From positions 1 to 37,103 of the IMG/VR virus record IMGVR_UViG_3300048576_000556: 37,103 bases of DNA. The stretch is one strand, 5' to 3'. The notes below the pieces were generated by a model, which was not told where the DNA came from, searched no databases, and saw nothing but the letters and a program-made list of their open reading frames with translations. This stretch comes from a virus. Taxonomy: Duplodnaviria; Caudoviricetes. Position numbers and translations under genes: made by a program. Numbering within the stretch: the stretch's first letter is position 1; each line of letters starts with the position of its first letter. Positions 14,058 through 35,326 of the stretch are shown piece by piece.

Positions 14058-15947
14058 TTATGCTTCGCCTTTAAACTTCACAGCGCCGCGATAATCCTGT
14101 TCACGAACACCGAAATCGATAAAGCCCCTGAACTGAATGCCGAGTGTGTTAAAATCGGCATCGGTCTTTTCAACTGTTGGCTGATCGATTCCGTTGAGGA
14201 ACGCAACTTCCAGGGCAGGAAGTCTATTGGGATCAGCAAACAGATACCATGCCTTTGAGCTATAGCCTGCAAACGATGAATTACTCAAATAGCTGCTCGA
14301 GACAACTTCATATTTACCAATATGAGGATTGGATGCAGGTTTACCCTTATTGGCCGTTGTAGTCTCATTCAAAGTCGGTGACTTCATCAATAAATCAGCT
14401 GGCACTCTGAGAGCGGTTGGTACCAGGATTAGTGATGGCTGAACACCAAGCGGTTTGCCGTTTGGTTTAGTTTGCTCGCCAAATACAACCTCGGCATCTG
14501 TCAATGAATCGACGCACAATGCCGTATCAGCGCCATCTTTGTAATTTTTATGAGCAGTAGAAAAAAAGCTCGATGGATTTGAAAGTAAAAGCCCCCATAC
14601 AGCATCAGCAATCGCTTCCGCTGCTCCCATACCAATTTGTCTGGGAACATCCGTAAATGCAGCCAGATCATCATTGATAATCATCTGGCGGGTAAGAGCA
14701 AACATGATACCATGAGTATCAGCTTTCTGACCGTATTTCTGCTCATCGATTTTACCATGCTTCAATTCGCCATCAGCGCCAACTTGCTCAAACTTAAAAC
14801 TTCCGGTCATCCGATAGCGGCTGTGTTCTTTAAAATCATTTACACTTGCGATCTTGCAGATCTTCCGCCACGAATCTTCGATATAATTGTATCCTTCCAA
14901 GAGCATTTTATTGGCTACATTGGAGAGTATTCCCGGCAGAGAAGCTGTACTGAAAGCTGCGGCAAGCCATGCTGAAGCATCACGCCGAAATCTTGGCAGC
15001 TGCATAGCACAAATCTGCTCACAGTACTCCTGAATACCGATACCACGGAGTTTTTCAGCAGCTTCCAAAGTCTGGTCATCGTAATATTTTTCGAGTCTTG
15101 AACCTGCAATACCTGAAGCCAACAATGCAACTGCCTCAAAAACCTTGGGAGTTGCCGTAATCTTCTGCGAAGAGACGATATTTACTGTAGGTCTTGATGC
15201 CCGAAGAACCTCAAGTTCGCATTTGCTCTGGTCCCAGCCTTCAGCAATCGCCTTTGCCTCGATATCATCATATTTACTGCCACAGATCTTTTTAATAGCA
15301 GCAATACGCGAAGTCTCTGCTGCGGCTGCTGCCCGGATATCTGCTGTTGTGCTTTCTGCGGTTACGGTTGTCTGTTCTTGCTTATTGTTTTCCTGATTTT
15401 CCATAGTTTGCTCCTGAAAATTTGCGGCAATAGTTGCCGATGTATTGTTATCTGCACCCAGGGTAACAAAACTTATTTCACCCAGGGTTGCTTTACGTGC
15501 TACATTTAATGGGCCGGTAAAATCCTTACCGTTTACATTTACATTTTGGCCTGCTTTAATGAATTCGACCTGATCAGCCCGTGCACCAATCGATGCCTGC
15601 CAGTTAAAACCTTTATCTGCCAAAGTAATAACGCGAGTTGCTCTGGGGGAATCACCAAGGATTTCGCCGACAGCGATTAAGTTATTTTCCAGAATGTCCA
15701 CATGATCGGTCTGGCCAAGCAGATCATCGATATCCTGGTTATGGCTGATAAATATCGGCCGCGATGAACTGCCTGTATTTAATCCCTGCAAATCAATAAC
15801 CACAGGATACTTCCAGCCTTCAAGCATCATGGGACCACCTGTATACGCCGTCATAGAGAAACGCCTGTTTTTGGGTTTTTCATTCTCACCAAGTGCCTGT
15901 GCTGCTTCGATTGAAAAGTTTGCCGTTAAATTTAGTTTATTCTTCAT
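14058..15947 (-). CDS. Fused prohead protease - scaffold - major capsid protein (Mu gpT-like capsid domain)
   Basis: N-terminal protease motifs (FISHN, WQASIGA, EISFVTLGAD), low-complexity linker, capsid domain with LTRQMIINDDL and DFGV...DYRG. Confidence 0.88.
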   Translation of the reverse strand: MKNKLNLTANFSIEAAQALGENEKPKNRRFSMTAYTGGPMMLEGWKYPVVIDLQGLNTGSSSRPIFISHNQDIDDLLGQTDHVDILENNLIAVGEILGDSPRATRVITLADKGFNWQASIGARADQVEFIKAGQNVNVNGKDFTGPLNVARKATLGEISFVTLGADNNTSATIAANFQEQTMENQENNKQEQTTVTAESTTADIRAAAAAETSRIAAIKKICGSKYDDIEAKAIAEGWDQSKCELEVLRASRPTVNIVSSQKITATPKVFEAVALLASGIAGSRLEKYYDDQTLEAAEKLRGIGIQEYCEQICAMQLPRFRRDASAWLAAAFSTASLPGILSNVANKMLLEGYNYIEDSWRKICKIASVNDFKEHSRYRMTGSFKFEQVGADGELKHGKIDEQKYGQKADTHGIMFALTRQMIINDDLAAFTDVPRQIGMGAAEAIADAVWGLLLSNPSSFFSTAHKNYKDGADTALCVDSLTDAEVVFGEQTKPNGKPLGVQPSLILVPTALRVPADLLMKSPTLNETTTANKGKPASNPHIGKYEVVSSSYLSNSSFAGYSSKAWYLFADPNRLPALEVAFLNGIDQPTVEKTDADFNTLGIQFRGFIDFGVREQDYRGAVKFKGEA

Positions 15948-17361
15948 CTTCGTCTTTCTCCAAAATTGAAGTTGTTGCCGTTTGTTGTGATATGCCTAAT
16001 TCGTCCATTAATTTTTTCTCGCGTGAGCGCTGTCGAAGTTCAACTTCCCAGTCTTTGCCTTGCTTTGCATATTCGTCCGCGAGCGTAGTTGTATGGTTAG
16101 CCAGTCTGATTTCCTGTGCCTTTGCTTCTTTAGCAGGATCGACGTGCTCTGTTCCATCCCAAAACCACTGATGGCAAGGCATCGTCCTAACAATAGTTCG
16201 CCAATTCAATGGCAAATAATCAGAGATGAGTATTGCTTCATTCAGCCATGCCTGTAAGATACGATCGAGTATCGCAAGTGCCATGTCCGCTTGATCCACC
16301 CTTATGCTCTTGTAATATGTTTGATGGTCGAGCCGGCCGGAGGCATAGTTGTATCCAGATGAATTACACGCCGCGATATTAAAAGGCATATTCAGACAGC
16401 GGGCGATTTCATTTAGGATCTGATTTTTAAATTCACCGTAAGTTGTAGTTGGCTGATGCGCTTCTATCTGCCCTAGTTTCCAGCCATCAGGAAGCGTTGT
16501 TGCCATCCTTTTCTCGAGTGCAACCACATCCATCGGCTCTAAATTAGCCGCTTCACCATTTGCAGGTGAATCGGTATATAAAACCGCTGCAAAATCAGCT
16601 GCAGTTTCGGCCGCGGCAATTACAGCAAGAGTATATCTTCGAAGCTGTGCAAATAATGGAAGTGCTGGTGTAATTTCAGGAATACCCCTGCTTTGACCGG
16701 GCCTATCTGCTCTGAACCAATGGATCATAGAATCAGCATCGATGGTGTTATATTCATAAAAGGCTGCATTCGAGAAAGAGCCTGGATGATTTTTTAAACA
16801 ATAATAACTGGATGGATTACCAAACTGGTCGAATTCAATGCCATCGACTAATGACTGCGTGTTAAGAAATTTTGACCATGGCGTAGTAATCTGGTCTGCT
16901 TCAATTAATCTCAAATCAAGTTTAACCGGAGAATTCAAATTCCTGTTTATAGAAAGAATCCCAAAAGCCTCACCATCGCTTGCTCTCGCCATTCGCATGG
17001 TACGAAGTTTCTGGGCAAGTTTGATTTGAGATGCCCAGTTCATAAATTCCGTTTCGATAATACCGTTGCCTAAGGTCTCATCAGTGAGCATCTGGAGCCT
17101 TGGCCCTGTGCCGACGACGTCGTTAGCAAGCGTAGAAACTATTCCGCGAGCGTAACTGTTATTAGCAACTTCATAGCGACTGCGATTTCGAAGAGTTTTG
17201 CGAACATCGGCGTTTGTTGCAGAATCAGCCGACAGAGAATCTGCATTCGCCCAGTGCCTCTGGTTGTCAGCTGTGGTCTGGGCAGCATCGAACCTGGCCC
17301 GCAGGATACGTCCTGCCGGCTGTAAAACTTTTTGCTTTTTATTTTTGCCGAAAAACCACAT
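15937..17361 (-). CDS. Portal protein, lambda family
   Basis: 474 aa with LRNRSRYEVANN, RPGQSRGIP, NYASGR and VDPAKE motifs. Confidence 0.92.
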   Translation of the reverse strand: MWFFGKNKKQKVLQPAGRILRARFDAAQTTADNQRHWANADSLSADSATNADVRKTLRNRSRYEVANNSYARGIVSTLANDVVGTGPRLQMLTDETLGNGIIETEFMNWASQIKLAQKLRTMRMARASDGEAFGILSINRNLNSPVKLDLRLIEADQITTPWSKFLNTQSLVDGIEFDQFGNPSSYYCLKNHPGSFSNAAFYEYNTIDADSMIHWFRADRPGQSRGIPEITPALPLFAQLRRYTLAVIAAAETAADFAAVLYTDSPANGEAANLEPMDVVALEKRMATTLPDGWKLGQIEAHQPTTTYGEFKNQILNEIARCLNMPFNIAACNSSGYNYASGRLDHQTYYKSIRVDQADMALAILDRILQAWLNEAILISDYLPLNWRTIVRTMPCHQWFWDGTEHVDPAKEAKAQEIRLANHTTTLADEYAKQGKDWEVELRQRSREKKLMDELGISQQTATTSILEKDEDEE

Positions 17362-17363
17362 AA

Positions 17364-17555
17364 TTAAACCGCTCCTGATGGAGATAGTTTTGAAAACTTA
17401 ATGCCGAGTCCTTTTTTCCGGCTGGCATTCTTACTTGCCAGATATTTATCCGCTGCTATCTGGTCAGCCAGTGAATGCTGCTCGACAGAGACTCCGTCGC
17501 TGGAAACTTTTGCTGGTTGCTGGGCATTATCCGAAATTTTCAAATCATTACTCAT
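17364..17555 (-). CDS. Head completion protein (gpW-like position)
   Basis: 63 aa (MSNDLK...DGVSVEQHSLADQIAADKYL) directly before the portal; the longer ORF call runs through the tRNA. Confidence 0.7.
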   Translation of the reverse strand: MSNDLKISDNAQQPAKVSSDGVSVEQHSLADQIAADKYLASKNASRKKGLGIKFSKLSPSGAV

Positions 17556-17557
17556 AA

Positions 17558-17629
17558 TTGCGGGAGAAGGATTCGAACCTTCATGTTCCAGGGCATGAGC
17601 CTGGTGAGCTACCATTGCTCTATCCCGCC
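17558..17629 (-). tRNA. tRNA-Met (CAT), initiator-like, no encoded CCA
   Basis: GGCGGGA-TA-GAGC AATGGTA GCTC-A-CCAGG CTCATGC CCTGG-AACAT-GAAGG TTCGAAT CCTTC-TCCCGCA-A: all four arms pair, with a 1:72 mismatch (G:A). Confidence 0.85.
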
Positions 17630-17654
17630 ATGAGCAACTAAATTCTGCGAGCGC

Positions 17655-17694
17655 AAAAAAATAAGCCGTCCGGGTGTTCGGCCCCGAACGGCTT
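17655..17694 (-). terminator. Intrinsic terminator / attenuator in the late leader
   Basis: 12-bp stem AAGCCGTTCGGG/CCCGGACGGCTT (one G-U), 8-nt loop, followed by ATTTTTTT. Confidence 0.75.
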
Positions 17695-17705
17695 TTATAT
17701 TTTTC

Positions 17706-17738
17706 TGGATTACCTGCGAGGATCAGTCGCAGTTACCC
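17706..17738 (-). other. Leader hairpin
   Basis: CTGCGA-CTGATCC-TCGCAG core stem-loop with an imperfect outer extension. Confidence 0.55.
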
Positions 17739-17761
17739 GCGTTATTTAGTTGTCGAGTTTG

Positions 17762-17829
17762 ATTATGACATGTGAATTTTGGTATTCAATAGTGATTTTG
17801 AAATATTTAAATAATGTTACACATATAGA
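17762..17829 (-). promoter_or_regulatory. Late promoter with upstream box
   Basis: -35 TTGAAT (17789-17784), 16-bp spacer ending TGT, -10 CATAAT (17767-17762); box TCTATATGTGTAACATT at 17829-17813. Confidence 0.7.
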
Positions 17830-17835
17830 TATAGT

Positions 17836-18003
17836 TCATTGTCCGAGCCTCTTTTCCCATGTCGTAAATCTTCGACCACATTTCTTGCATTCTCTTCTAC
17901 GCACCAGTTTCCCATCTGATGCGGGACGTGTATAGATCACTTGAAATTGCCGGCTGCCACATTTCTGACATTCAAATCCTTTTATTCTTTGCTTCGGAAT
18001 CAT
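17836..18003 (-). CDS. Zinc-ribbon protein (NrdR-N / Ogr-Delta-like), candidate late regulator
   Basis: 55 aa with CQKCGS...VIYTR...RRRECKKCGRRFTTWE; ATGA overlap with the terminase stop. Confidence 0.75.
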   Translation of the reverse strand: MIPKQRIKGFECQKCGSRQFQVIYTRPASDGKLVRRRECKKCGRRFTTWEKRLGQ

Positions 18004-20246
18004 TCCTTTGTCCTTTTCTGAATATCTGATAATTTGATTTTTTCCCTTTTCGTAAATGTTTTTACATTGTGCCCGCTTAAACTGCATCCACACATTGATG
18101 CAGCTACCGAGCATCCCACCATGCAATCAAACCAATGATTATCGAGGCCGCCAACTTTTGGTGACCATTGATAAACTACCCTGCCGTGCCCTTCGGTTCG
18201 TACCCAACTTTCAGAACCGGCGATATGCTGGGCGAACAATTCATGCTGATGATTGCTTTTGCCAAAGATTGTCAAACTGCCGTGATCCCCCGCTGCTACA
18301 AAGAACCTTTCATGAACAAATGTCTTCCAATAATTCGTATCAATGGCAACGTGCGTGAACTCTCCAGTTTTATTTATGTTGGGTATATACCAATGATGGC
18401 CGTGCCGCTCTCCCGGCTTTCGTTTGTAGGTTGACATTGGTTTATTTGCGGCTTTGATACCAACACCCTTTGAAGCCATAATCGTTCCGCCAAGTTTATG
18501 GCGGATATTTTCAACAATGCCCGGCATATAACCACTATCAATCAGGCACCGGTCAATTTTCATAACGCTGGTACCTCGGTTCCAGTCTCGATTAAGAAAA
18601 TCGCTGCAGAGTTTCTCTAATCCTGCTTGGATCGCACCTTCTTTTTCCATGCCGTGGTAAATATCCTGCAAACCAATTTGTGCTTTGCGAAGTGTAAATG
18701 ATGCCCTTCTCTGGTCTGGATATGTTCCATAGTCTACAACAAAGCCTGTAAAATCTTCTGACCATGCGCATACCACATAAAAAAGTAATTTATCATGCAC
18801 ATCGATGAACATCGTAAGGTACTGACAGCCCAACGGAACCTCATATCTTTTTCGGCCATTAGTTTTTTCCATAACCTGTTCGATTGTTAAAACCTGTTCA
18901 TCAGTTTGCTCTGCAACCGGATCGTTTTGATATTCGGCATAGAAGGCTGCCTCATCGCGAAGCATCAGGTTCATGGCATGCTGAATCGCAGATATTTCGT
19001 CTTCATTGTGACGCTGCGGCCATGCAACACTACTGCCGCTATCCATGGCGGCCCTATTTTGAATGTAAAATTCTGTTGCTTCTTTACCACCATTGCCGGA
19101 TCTGAGACTATCCGCCCGGATTTCTTCATACTTATCCCAAAGTTTCATATCTGTTGGGAACGCATAAACCATTTTCGTACACTGACCCTGCCATTCAGGA
19201 TTTTTATCTGGATCGAGAATCTGGTCAGCTAAATCATTGCAATAAATCTTTGTACAGGTAAGTAGTCCTGATATTTTTTTGCCAGGTCCTGCCATACCAA
19301 GCACATCACCATTTAATGTGCTCAATCTCTGGCCTGTTTGGTCAGCAGATTTGGCAGATTCTCTTGTTTGCGGATCATCTATTAAAACCAGATCAGGTCG
19401 AATGATCTTGCCATCCATGGTCGTATGTATCTGGCCGCGAATATTTGAATCCAGACTATCAACAGTAATTACAGAACCTGATGCGATGCTGCCTGCAATA
19501 GTTGGAATAACAATTTTATGTGTTCCCCATACTGGATATGTAAGCCTGCCTTCGTATCTTTGGCCACGTTGTTTATGGGCAGAATTTTCCAGGCACTGAA
19601 TTGGATAAATGATTTCAGGGAAATCTGCTAAAAGCAGACTATTGCCCAGCATAGCAGCCTGAACACTTTGAAAAAGATTAAGCGATTGCCGGGTGGCTGA
19701 ACCAATTAAACAAACATATTTCCTTGCGCCAATTAAAATTGCCCATATCGCGGCCGATCTTGTCAGAGCAGATTTACCGCTGCCTCTGGGCATTGCAAAT
19801 GCGAACAAACCTCCATTAAGAACCGATTGTTCTATTTTTGAAATTACCTTTAGATGGTCATCTGACCAGGTTAAATAAAATACATCAGAAAAGTAAGTCT
19901 CGCAAAAGAACCTGAAATCTTTGCACGCTTTTTCTCGGCGATCTTGATTTTCAATCGCTGGAATTTCGCCTATATCCTGAGCTTCTTTGCGTGCGGCATT
20001 TTTAGCGATTAGATCTTTTAATCTTGATTCCTCGACAGACTGTTTCTGCTGTTTTGGTTTTTCATATTCTTTTGCAAGCCATGAGACATAGCGCACAAGA
20101 TTTATATGTTTACCATCACCAATGCGGTATGCAGCAGAATTCATCTGCCAACGAAGTTGATTCTGGCTAAGCACATCGCCAAGCGGCGTTGCGTTCATCA
20201 ATCGAAGCAGCTGTATCTGCGATAATTTATTTACATCAATTGCCAT
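18000..20246 (-). CDS. Terminase large subunit (GpA-like)
   Basis: 748 aa, Walker A PRGSGKS, Walker B VLIDD, nuclease region FIDVH...NHWFDC. Confidence 0.9.
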   Translation of the reverse strand: MAIDVNKLSQIQLLRLMNATPLGDVLSQNQLRWQMNSAAYRIGDGKHINLVRYVSWLAKEYEKPKQQKQSVEESRLKDLIAKNAARKEAQDIGEIPAIENQDRREKACKDFRFFCETYFSDVFYLTWSDDHLKVISKIEQSVLNGGLFAFAMPRGSGKSALTRSAAIWAILIGARKYVCLIGSATRQSLNLFQSVQAAMLGNSLLLADFPEIIYPIQCLENSAHKQRGQRYEGRLTYPVWGTHKIVIPTIAGSIASGSVITVDSLDSNIRGQIHTTMDGKIIRPDLVLIDDPQTRESAKSADQTGQRLSTLNGDVLGMAGPGKKISGLLTCTKIYCNDLADQILDPDKNPEWQGQCTKMVYAFPTDMKLWDKYEEIRADSLRSGNGGKEATEFYIQNRAAMDSGSSVAWPQRHNEDEISAIQHAMNLMLRDEAAFYAEYQNDPVAEQTDEQVLTIEQVMEKTNGRKRYEVPLGCQYLTMFIDVHDKLLFYVVCAWSEDFTGFVVDYGTYPDQRRASFTLRKAQIGLQDIYHGMEKEGAIQAGLEKLCSDFLNRDWNRGTSVMKIDRCLIDSGYMPGIVENIRHKLGGTIMASKGVGIKAANKPMSTYKRKPGERHGHHWYIPNINKTGEFTHVAIDTNYWKTFVHERFFVAAGDHGSLTIFGKSNHQHELFAQHIAGSESWVRTEGHGRVVYQWSPKVGGLDNHWFDCMVGCSVAASMCGCSLSGHNVKTFTKREKIKLSDIQKRTKE

Positions 20247-32735: not shown

Positions 32736-33347
32736 ATGAAACCACTAACAAACAATCAGAAGAAAATCCTAAGTTATATCGAACGTAGTTTTGCTAAGAA
32801 TATTTGCCCAAGTCAACATGAAATGGCTGATCATTTTGGTGTTACTCAGAATGCAATTTGCCAATATATAAACAGCCTGAAGCTAAAAGGATATCTGGAA
32901 GGATACAGCCCTCATAGAGGTCTGAGGTTCACTAAAGAATACGAGGCCGCTAAAGAAAAGGGTACAGGTCTGCCACTTATAGGCAGAATTGCAGCAGGTG
33001 TTCCTATCTTAGCCGAAGAAAACATCACAGACTATATAGATGTGGGAAATATTATAAAAAAACCGCACAAGGATGCTTATATTCTGCAAATTGTCGGTGA
33101 CAGCATGATTGAGGACAGCATCAATGATGGCGACTATGTGATTGTCAAGCCGCAACGTACGATTGAGAACGGCCAAATTGGTGTAGCACTTATCGAAGAT
33201 GAGGCAACAGTAAAAAGAATATATTTTAAAGCCGAAAAGCTGATTCTAAAACCATCAAATCCAAAATATAAGGAAATGGTCTATACACGCGACGATGAAA
33301 ATGTCCGCATTGCAGGGATAGTGATTGGGAGTTTTAGAAGATTTTAA
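32736..33347 (+). CDS. lexA: LexA-family repressor, copy 1 (cleavable)
   Basis: N-terminal wHTH, GRIAAGVPILA cleavage loop, GDSM (Ser) and EATVKR (Lys). Confidence 0.9.
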   Translation: MKPLTNNQKKILSYIERSFAKNICPSQHEMADHFGVTQNAICQYINSLKLKGYLEGYSPHRGLRFTKEYEAAKEKGTGLPLIGRIAAGVPILAEENITDYIDVGNIIKKPHKDAYILQIVGDSMIEDSINDGDYVIVKPQRTIENGQIGVALIEDEATVKRIYFKAEKLILKPSNPKYKEMVYTRDDENVRIAGIVIGSFRRF

Positions 33348-33416
33348 TTAGACTATAGTAATTAATAGTTGGAGAAAAATTAATCACCATAATATGAAAA
33401 AATTAAACAAATAACC

Positions 33417-33998
33417 ATGCTTCATTACGTTGAACGTAATCTTGCTAATAAAGTTTATCCAACTCAAAAGGAAATGGCAGAACATTTCGGAGTATCTCAG
33501 CATGTGATTTATCAACGCTTAAACAGTTTACGAAAAAAAGGATATCTGGAGAATTGCAGTTTTCGCAGGGGTACATATCTTTCTAAAGAATACCTTGCTT
33601 CAAAAGAAAAATCAGTCGGTTTGCCGATTCTTGGCAGAGTTGTGACACGTACCCCAATTTTAGCTGAAAAAAACATTACCGGGTATATGGATCTAAACAG
33701 CTTTATTAAAAAAGCACATAAGAATGCATTCATTTTAAAGACCGTAGGTGATAGCATGTTTAATGATAACGTCAATAGCGGTGATTACGTTATCGTCAAA
33801 CCACAGAGCACCGTCGAAAATGGTCAAATTGGTGTGGCTGTTATTGAAAATGAGGCAACCGTAAAGAGAATATTTATAAAGGCTGGCAAAATAATATTAA
33901 AACCAGCCAACCGTAAATACAAAGAAATGGTCTATAAACGCGATGATGAAAATGTCTCCATTATAGGCATAGTCATCGGGTGTTTTAGAAGATTTTAG
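33417..33998 (+). CDS. LexA-family repressor, copy 2 (cleavage site lost, N-terminus shortened)
   Basis: Colinear paralog of copy 1; GRVVTRTPILA replaces GRIAAGVPILA; GDSM and EATVKR retained. Confidence 0.85.
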   Translation: MLHYVERNLANKVYPTQKEMAEHFGVSQHVIYQRLNSLRKKGYLENCSFRRGTYLSKEYLASKEKSVGLPILGRVVTRTPILAEKNITGYMDLNSFIKKAHKNAFILKTVGDSMFNDNVNSGDYVIVKPQSTVENGQIGVAVIENEATVKRIFIKAGKIILKPANRKYKEMVYKRDDENVSIIGIVIGCFRRF

Positions 33999-35251: not shown

Positions 35252-35326
35252 AAAATGTTCTACATATGGAACATTTTCATTTTAGCGTTTCAATTGAGTT
35301 GAATACCAAAACAGGTTTGCTACAAC
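35252..35326 (+). promoter_or_regulatory. xis/int promoter with palindromic upstream box
   Basis: AAAATGTTC-N8-GAACATTTT (35252-35277); TTGAATACCAAAA at 35299; TGC-TACAAC at the -10 position. Confidence 0.6.

Follow-up and report, generated by a model that had tools for sequence, protein, structure and literature searches.

Gene content and setting of the locus

The window analysed here, by which we mean the whole 37,103-nucleotide stretch of IMG/VR record IMGVR_UViG_3300048576_000556, comes from a 37-kb temperate phage that encodes an integrase, repressors and replication proteins and has its lambda-type head-tail genes on the minus strand. In one protein scan of 80 loci, the relatives of this phage were nearly all from Planctomycetota, with the closest found in Phycisphaerae-type genomes, and its host is hence likely a Planctomycete bacterium. 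The two CI/LexA-like repressor genes lie in tandem on the plus strand (32736-33998).

On the minus strand, the gene for the terminase large subunit (terL, 18000..20246; PHROG 38 and 15) precedes a lambda-type portal gene (15937..17361; PF05136, E 1e-56; phrog_21), which has its own SD (AGGAG upstream). TerL has a long N-terminal extension without a family match, and its stop codon is overlapped by a 55-aa ORF (17836..18003, minus) for an NrdR-like zinc ribbon (PF22811, E 3.5e-14), which we regard as a candidate late regulator. A protease-major capsid fusion gene (phrog_4523) occupies 14058-15947 on the same strand. Between terL and the portal gene lies a non-coding cassette consisting, in order, of a palindromic site, a sigma70-like promoter, a structured leader of about 120 nt with a terminator-like hairpin, and a tRNA gene. 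The cassette is followed by a 63-aa ORF (17364..17555, minus), with 2 nt between its end and the portal gene.

The initial annotation called this ORF gpW-like, gpW being a head-completion protein. The name is supported by its position, a small gene between terminase and lambda-type portal as in the lambda gpW family, and by its predicted topology (helix, two strands, helix, forming a helix-hairpin-helix; pLDDT 73), but not by sequence homology, as the protein matches no Pfam or PHROG family and no solved structure. The top Foldseek rows for the predicted model are lambda portal-adaptor chains of 65-67 aa at non-significant values (8xow_W, E 0.69; 8k38_M, E 0.98), and the gpW NMR structure 2l6q gave a Foldseek E of 6.6 (VIA best Z 3.7). 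The same annotation described the start of this gene as the first structural start codon. It does belong to the first gene behind the predicted internal late promoter, but not to the first late gene, since terL and the zinc-ribbon ORF, on this strand too, come before it. Within what appears to be an internal late transcription unit, the tRNA is the last element that does not code for protein.

An initiator-type tRNA gene abutting a start codon

ARAGORN predicts a single tRNA-Met(cat) in the window, at 17557-17630 on the minus strand, and Rfam model RF00005 matches 17629-17558 over its full length (59.6 bits, E 1.3e-10); from these and the sequence we place the gene at 17558..17629. Its D, anticodon and T stems are perfectly paired. 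The acceptor stem opens with a G1.A72 mismatch, followed by G2-C71, C3-G70 and G4-C69, and the discriminator A73 lies at 17558. The anticodon stem consists of A29-U41, G30-C40 and G31-C39 below a CUCAUGC loop (with G37 and C38), and no CCA is encoded. The cloverleaf as first described, with its 1:72 mismatch, G2-C71, C3-G70, A73, two of three anticodon-stem G-C pairs, G37-C38 and missing CCA, is thus fully borne out, and A11:U24 can be added as a further initiator mark that had been overlooked.

According to PMC9976931, an unpaired 1:72, A73, G2-C71, C3-G70, G4-C69 and R11:Y24 mark a tRNA for initiation and formylation. The window tRNA carries all of these on a CAU cloverleaf, although its mismatch is G1.A72 where the canonical initiator has C1.A72. 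Of the three consecutive G-C pairs expected at 29-31/39-41, it keeps G30-C40 and G31-C39 and has A29-U41 in place of the other. Since alphaproteobacteria and some mycoplasmas naturally have A29-U41, and the variant can sustain E. coli (PMC5389676), we provisionally class the gene, on its sequence, as a variant initiator-type tRNA. Elongator tRNA-Met and tRNA-Ile2 (CAU) are excluded, as it has neither a paired 1-72 nor Y11:R24; three other CAU tRNAs of the host group (L867, L870, L890) have G1-C72.

Behind the discriminator come only two nucleotides, TT (17556..17557, minus, corresponding to tRNA positions 74-75), and then directly the ATG of the gpW-like gene (17555-17553). No SD motif is present in the 16 nt preceding this ATG, confirming the earlier description of the junction. 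SD motifs are absent from many genes of the window. An ATG 2 nt past the tRNA is found at the gpW-like gene in 25 of 62 distinct cases among relatives (see below), compared with none of 468 control tRNA genes. Counting only an ATG that opens a frame of at least 40 aa, these controls comprise 0/282 other viral, 0/156 metagenomic and 0/30 host tRNA genes. Among the 282 other viral tRNA genes, no general excess of ATG at 2 nt behind phage tRNAs was seen.

An 83-aa in-frame ORF begins at 17615, at an AUG in the D loop of the tRNA, and gene callers will extend the gpW-like gene into the tRNA because of it. It could be argued that translation starts inside the tRNA, either at this AUG or through a 14-codon frame that runs from the anticodon AUG to a stop overlapping the gpW-like start, or that the uncut tRNA fold gates translation of the gene. 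An open in-frame upstream ATG is indeed present in 15/26 of the relatives with a short spacer, and a stop overlapping the start in 12/26. However, 11 of the short-spacer cases lack the first feature and 14 the second, close sisters included, and both starts would lie inside a stable cloverleaf, which makes such explanations very improbable.

Predicted promoter and leader RNA upstream of the tRNA

The predicted promoter is a sigma70-like site with a TG-extended -10 (17762..17789, minus) and a predicted start near 17754; the search gave 4 sites in the 1-kb region against 2.0 expected in shuffled sequences. Among the 37 leader loci found in relatives, TAnnnT lies 3-8 nt before the leader in 18, and in 17 of these at 6-7 nt. 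Upstream, at a fixed distance before the promoter, is an imperfect 16-bp palindrome (17816..17831), which has a match with at most three mismatches in 34/37 leader loci; in most of them the match ends 60-64 nt upstream of the leader. It is likely a regulator site. For both promoter types the palindrome keeps a constant distance upstream, and it adjoins the zinc-ribbon ORF fused to the terL stop, making the two a candidate pair of site and regulator. A second, closely matching copy lies at 35257-35272, near an excisionase-like gene.

No promoter was found inside the tRNA 3' end or between the tRNA and the gpW-like gene. With a promoter-like site upstream of the tRNA and none between it and the gene, the two may share one precursor RNA, although a terminator-like hairpin precedes the tRNA.

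The leader itself (17635..17754, minus) folds into a closing stem, a small hairpin with a CUGAUCC loop (17732-17714) and a long hairpin followed by a U-run (17694-17654). In an alignment of 29 sequences (28 of the 37 extracted leaders and the window), 11 of 20 predicted pairs show compensatory changes, and no Rfam family matches the leader at its gathering score or anywhere near it. A pattern scan with the leader hairpin returned mostly unrelated matches, with at least three leader marks in 9/105. In 5/37 loci the leader is present without a tRNA. Because the leader and its terminator-like hairpin are found both in front of a tRNA and without one, transcription of the head operon probably depends on antitermination.

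In four loci (L583, L821, L511, L127), gpW or the tRNA is preceded by another kind of leader, whose terminator-like hairpin differs, suggesting that leader, tRNA and spacer are separate modules. A hairpin with a CUGAUC loop followed by a terminator-like hairpin was also observed in five phages without a gpW gene of this type (L317, L334, L350, L369, L393). Locus L411 (2697-3003) holds a natural cassette replacement: the leader is intact and the tRNA decayed, and a second palindrome-promoter-SD unit follows before gpW. In this one case, the decay affects about 33/72 positions of the tRNA and about 9/120 of the leader.

Presence and spacing of the tRNA among relatives

Related loci were collected in three protein scans of 80 loci each, and five DNA scans added further loci. 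A gpW profile matched 337 of the 849 loci, giving 231 distinct loci in which a start could be assigned and 120 nt of preceding sequence was available. The tRNA is present in 68 of these, 62 of them distinct in tRNA plus spacer. The initial annotation held that its processing hypothesis would be refuted by relatives without the tRNA, or with variable spacing and a normal SD. Both kinds exist, which goes part of the way towards that refutation: 160 of the 186 relatives fetched by protein alone lack the tRNA, and 36/62 tRNA-bearing cases have an SD. Yet 25 of 27 SD-less cases keep exactly 2 nt (the other two have 3 nt and 5 nt). Judging from this distribution, the cassette tRNA is optional and the arrangement dispensable.

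The tRNA could in principle be a leftover integration target or a captured host gene without any role, given that the phage has an integrase and most relatives lack the tRNA. We find this barely credible, as the tRNA is full length, lies far from the integrase, differs from the host initiator by 17 substitutions and a 2-nt gap, and has covarying stems.

The spacers fall into discrete classes. Among the 62 distinct cases, the spacer is 2 nt in 25, 3 nt in one (L172), 10-16 nt in 33 and 51-64 nt in three, with none of 4-9 nt. In the subset fetched by protein (186), it is 2-3 nt in 19, 4-9 nt in none and at least 10 nt in seven. All 36 spacers of at least 10 nt carry an SD motif, while none of the 26 short spacers can. 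By the same rule, the motif is missing in 50 of the 163 tRNA-free loci, some of these because of the stretch searched for an SD, compared with 0/36 long spacers behind a tRNA. SD-less leaders are thus tolerated at the gpW gene, though none was seen behind a tRNA with a long spacer. A counter-example to the strict 2-nt rule is a distant phage found in three copies (L763), which has the same gene order, a 5-nt spacer and no usable SD. Two loci outside the 62-case set have longer spacers, one of 13 nt with an SD (L758) and one of about 26 nt behind a tRNA with a damaged T arm (L492).

Loci with the tRNA and close relatives lacking it are intermixed on a 192-row FastTree (18 changes). A gpW+portal tree was built from 57 of the 62 rows (the five without a portal sequence were left out). 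Seven changes between the two spacer classes are needed on it, five of them forced by starred branches. Taking out four long rows still leaves six changes, and the hypothesis that all 2-nt cases form one clade is rejected (p-AU 2e-29). On this tree the 2-nt form would need at least 5-7 switches. Sister pairs share the tRNA body and differ in spacer class, and the class switches on the protein tree could reflect recombination of the cassette end rather than separate origins.

The start codon is ATG in 26/26 short cases, but since this is also true of 34/36 SD-class starts, it is not specific to the short class. A bias towards A/T in codon 2 (11/12 GC-rich short cases vs 11/36) is not significant on independent pairs (p 0.25). 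The predicted cost of opening the region from -15 to +13 in the uncut RNA has a median of 13.5 kcal/mol in the 2-nt class vs 9.9 kcal/mol in the SD class.

A pattern search of 401 genomes of the host phylum gave two matches, both at loci already in the set, and annotated phage records gave 26 generic tRNA-Met matches, none covering the cassette. When the 163 tRNA-free loci were searched with a profile for decayed tRNAs, L492 was the only hit and the L411 remnant escaped detection, which means that the count of decayed copies is too low. Two phages (L830, L839) have an elongator-type tRNA-Met with C1-G72 and an encoded CCA in the same slot before gpW, with an SD spacer. In two others (L578, L492; both SD-class), a 20-nt palindromic insert interrupts the variable or T arm of the tRNA.

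tRNA 3' processing in the host group

Trailers released by tRNase Z carry a 5' phosphate. A 5'-monophosphate end could speed decay. In host-group genome G002, 27 of the 30 best-scoring tRNA genes (best 30 of 54 matches) lack an encoded CCA; 3' maturation in the host group must therefore be endonucleolytic or equivalent. A Thermotoga-type tRNase Z-like protein of 284-321 aa (L849-L853) is encoded in 5/5 host-group genomes tested, each of which has a 2-nt locus. Among solved structures, it is related only to rice RNase ZS1 (E 3e-38) and to the tRNase Z of T. maritima (E 4e-17). By the criteria given in PMC3161902, it has the TM-type motifs HxHxDH, an EGxSxxG-like start, a KL-motif arm, xExT and HxH; it scores below the NCBIfam RNase Z cut-off, and its motif I differs from that of T. 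maritima. The plant-like TM-type tRNase Z of this host group may be missed in annotation. The host group, judged from genomes that hold relatives of the phage, therefore combines two ingredients of tRNA punctuation, unencoded CCA and a putative 3' endonuclease.

Most tRNase Zs cut after N73, while the wild-type T. maritima enzyme cuts a 74GUG76 precursor between GU and G, i.e. after N75 (PMC1540738, Table 1). A cut after N75 on a non-CCA trailer would expose the AUG exactly, which would explain why the spacer is 2 rather than 0. However, where most tRNA genes of a host lack CCA, its enzyme may well cleave after N73. U75 occurs in 24/30 host trailers and is therefore no special signal.

Conservation of the tRNA and its possible functions

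The initiator of the host group is canonical in 4/5 genomes, with a CUCAUAA loop and three G-C pairs. Among the phage cassettes, CAU is kept in a 7-nt loop on a covarying stem in 54/62 cases, and no plain single-base anticodon change was seen in the other eight. G30-C40, reported as the pair that matters most (PMC5389676), is present in 54/54 intact anticodon arms, compared with 7/54 for all three G-C pairs. The 1:72 mismatch is kept across the family while its bases change, and the stems covary across lineages. Loop positions 32, 33, 37 and 38 are variable: A37-A38 is found in 6/54 gene-linked loops vs 70/78 metagenomic and 55/74 other viral CAU tRNAs, the comparison tRNAs having been picked by one D-arm pattern. 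As CAU and G30-C40 are kept while loop positions 37 and 38 vary, the released tRNA is probably functional as well.

Not every copy fits this picture. In five cases, three in the 2-nt class (L107, L465, L457) and two in the SD class (L846, L536), the anticodon arm is wrecked and the acceptor, D and T arms, the part that RNase Z reads (PMC3790967), are intact; this is partly a matter of ascertainment, as the search patterns favour intact D and T arms. Since it occurs in the SD class too, the wrecked arm is not specific to short spacers. These copies, together with the variable loop and the scarcity of the full set of G-C pairs, are what one would expect if the tRNA were purely a processing tag acting in cis (a t-element), cut out and never charged or used. 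For the family as a whole this is improbable given the retention of CAU, the 7-nt loop, the covarying stem, G30-C40 and the 1:72 mismatch, though it may hold for just the few wrecked copies.

VapC toxins cut near positions 38-39. Mutation of the anticodon loop has been proposed as a way for phage tRNAs to evade host nucleases (PMC10264068), and the first sign of such a tRNA, an anticodon kept in a loop altered relative to that of the host, is seen here. This invites the opposite explanation, in which the tRNA is solely a spare initiator acting in trans that escapes host nucleases, the 2-nt spacing results from compaction or recombination, and gpW is translated from uncut RNA independently of an SD. 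The rarity of A37-A38 in the gene-linked loops compared with the other CAU tRNAs and with the CUCAUAA loop of the host would fit, as would the initiator-like tRNAs with G37 that lie away from start codons in unrelated phages. It would leave unexplained the 2-nt spacing in 25/27 SD-less cases across lineages, as well as the five wrecked anticodon arms on intact bodies, and enterobacterial phages, at least, generally did without a tRNA-fMet gene where this tRNA is a VapC target (PMC10264068). We therefore consider it unlikely that the tRNA acts in trans alone. The role in trans is itself compatible with punctuation; the part that competes is the claim that the spacing is incidental. The initiator-like tRNA-Met genes with G37 (L160-L278) sit in tRNA clusters of these unrelated phages, many with an encoded CCA, and may represent a signature shared among phages.

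The initial annotation offered cis-processing and an altered-loop tRNA as alternatives. Since CAU and G30-C40 are kept and loop positions 37 and 38 have diverged from the host, both are probably true in part.

A model for the head-operon transcript

The explanation we favour, and consider reasonably probable from these sequence comparisons, is tRNA punctuation: a tRNase Z cut would yield both a near-leaderless head-operon message and a usable initiator tRNA. The elements follow one another in the order promoter-like site, leader, tRNA, NU, AUG, with no SD. A single transcript would start at the promoter near 17754 and, late in infection, read through the terminator-like hairpin of the leader. 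RNase P would cut at 17629, and the Thermotoga-type tRNase Z would cut after N73, leaving a 2-nt leader, or after N75, leaving none. This second cut would strip away the acceptor stem, which in the uncut RNA would block the ribosome site, and let 70S ribosomes start at the AUG, with downstream genes using their own SD; as the portal gene has one, only gpW would depend on the tRNA-cut route. The matured tRNA would then be charged and formylated, adding to the initiator pool and so favouring leaderless initiation. According to PMC9031893, this mode of initiation depends on an AUG with a 5' phosphate, becomes less efficient the farther the AUG lies from the end, and increases strongly with initiator tRNA. 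In sister phages, the same start would be served by a tRNA with an SD spacer, or without a tRNA.

The cis reading of the initial annotation, that tRNA 3' processing creates an almost leaderless head mRNA, gains from the 2-nt spacing in 25/27 SD-less cases, the at least 5-7 switches, and the CCA-less tRNAs and tRNase Z of the host group. Further points in favour are the higher opening cost of the uncut 2-nt junctions, the three 2-nt copies that have lost the anticodon arm but kept the arms read by RNase Z, and the single case of L411, where the tRNA has decayed once a second promoter-SD unit stands between it and the gene. The cis reading has to be narrowed, however, to one optional solution rather than a requirement of the family. 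A bolder version is that the locus forms a self-feeding unit, in which tRNase Z cuts exactly at the AUG to give a perfectly leaderless message plus an initiator tRNA, the altered loop may keep the unit running when the host initiator is destroyed, and punctuation evolved repeatedly from SD-led forms. This we put forward tentatively, as a rather doubtful extension of the punctuation model.

Comparison with known systems

Our searches of an open-access library found no report of tRNA punctuation in a phage or bacterium, or of this cassette. If the model is correct, a phage tRNA does more than meet codon demand or evade nucleases, the position at which TM-type tRNase Z cleaves takes on biological meaning, and the findings bear on the origin of leaderless initiation from processing.

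Transfer RNA genes between a promoter or terminator leader and protein genes are known from E. coli metY-nusA-infB and from lambdoid pR'-tR' leaders, such as that of 933W with its tRNA genes. To our knowledge, the next gene in metY-nusA-infB and in the 933W late leader has an ordinary leader and no abutting start.

The window tRNA has the CAU anticodon, 1:72 mismatch, A73, G2-C71, C3-G70, G4-C69, R11:Y24 and G30-C40 in common with bacterial initiator tRNA-fMet, including the A29-U41 variants that occur naturally (PMC5389676, PMC9976931). It differs in G1.A72 (not C1.A72), G37-C38 (not A37-A38) and a shorter D loop, and also departs from the canonical initiator of its host group. With the nuclease-evading phage tRNAs discussed in PMC10264068 it shares a kept anticodon with changed neighbouring loop bases, a candidate likeness, but the present phages encode an fMet-like tRNA, which the enterobacterial phages considered there mostly avoided.

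Bacterial leaderless mRNAs, such as lambda cI and the contested MazF-made messages (PMC9031893, PMC4929434), likewise have an AUG at or near a phosphorylated 5' end, use 70S ribosomes and are boosted by initiator tRNA. The ends described there come from a promoter at the AUG or from a toxin cut, whereas here a housekeeping tRNA maturase would make the end.

The closest parallel is the tRNA punctuation of animal and fungal mitochondria, together with plant t-elements (PMC3790967), where a CCA-less tRNA also abuts a coding sequence and 3' processing sets the mRNA 5' end, as it would here. The present case, known from its sequence, differs in its bacterial host, its place at one site of a phage late operon, a short TM-type rather than long-form tRNase Z, and the existence of SD-led sister forms. 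Punctuation has been described for mitochondria; here, one orthologous gpW gene occurs in three natural states (no tRNA, tRNA with SD, and tRNA with 2 nt) with repeated switches between them, providing ready-made controls.
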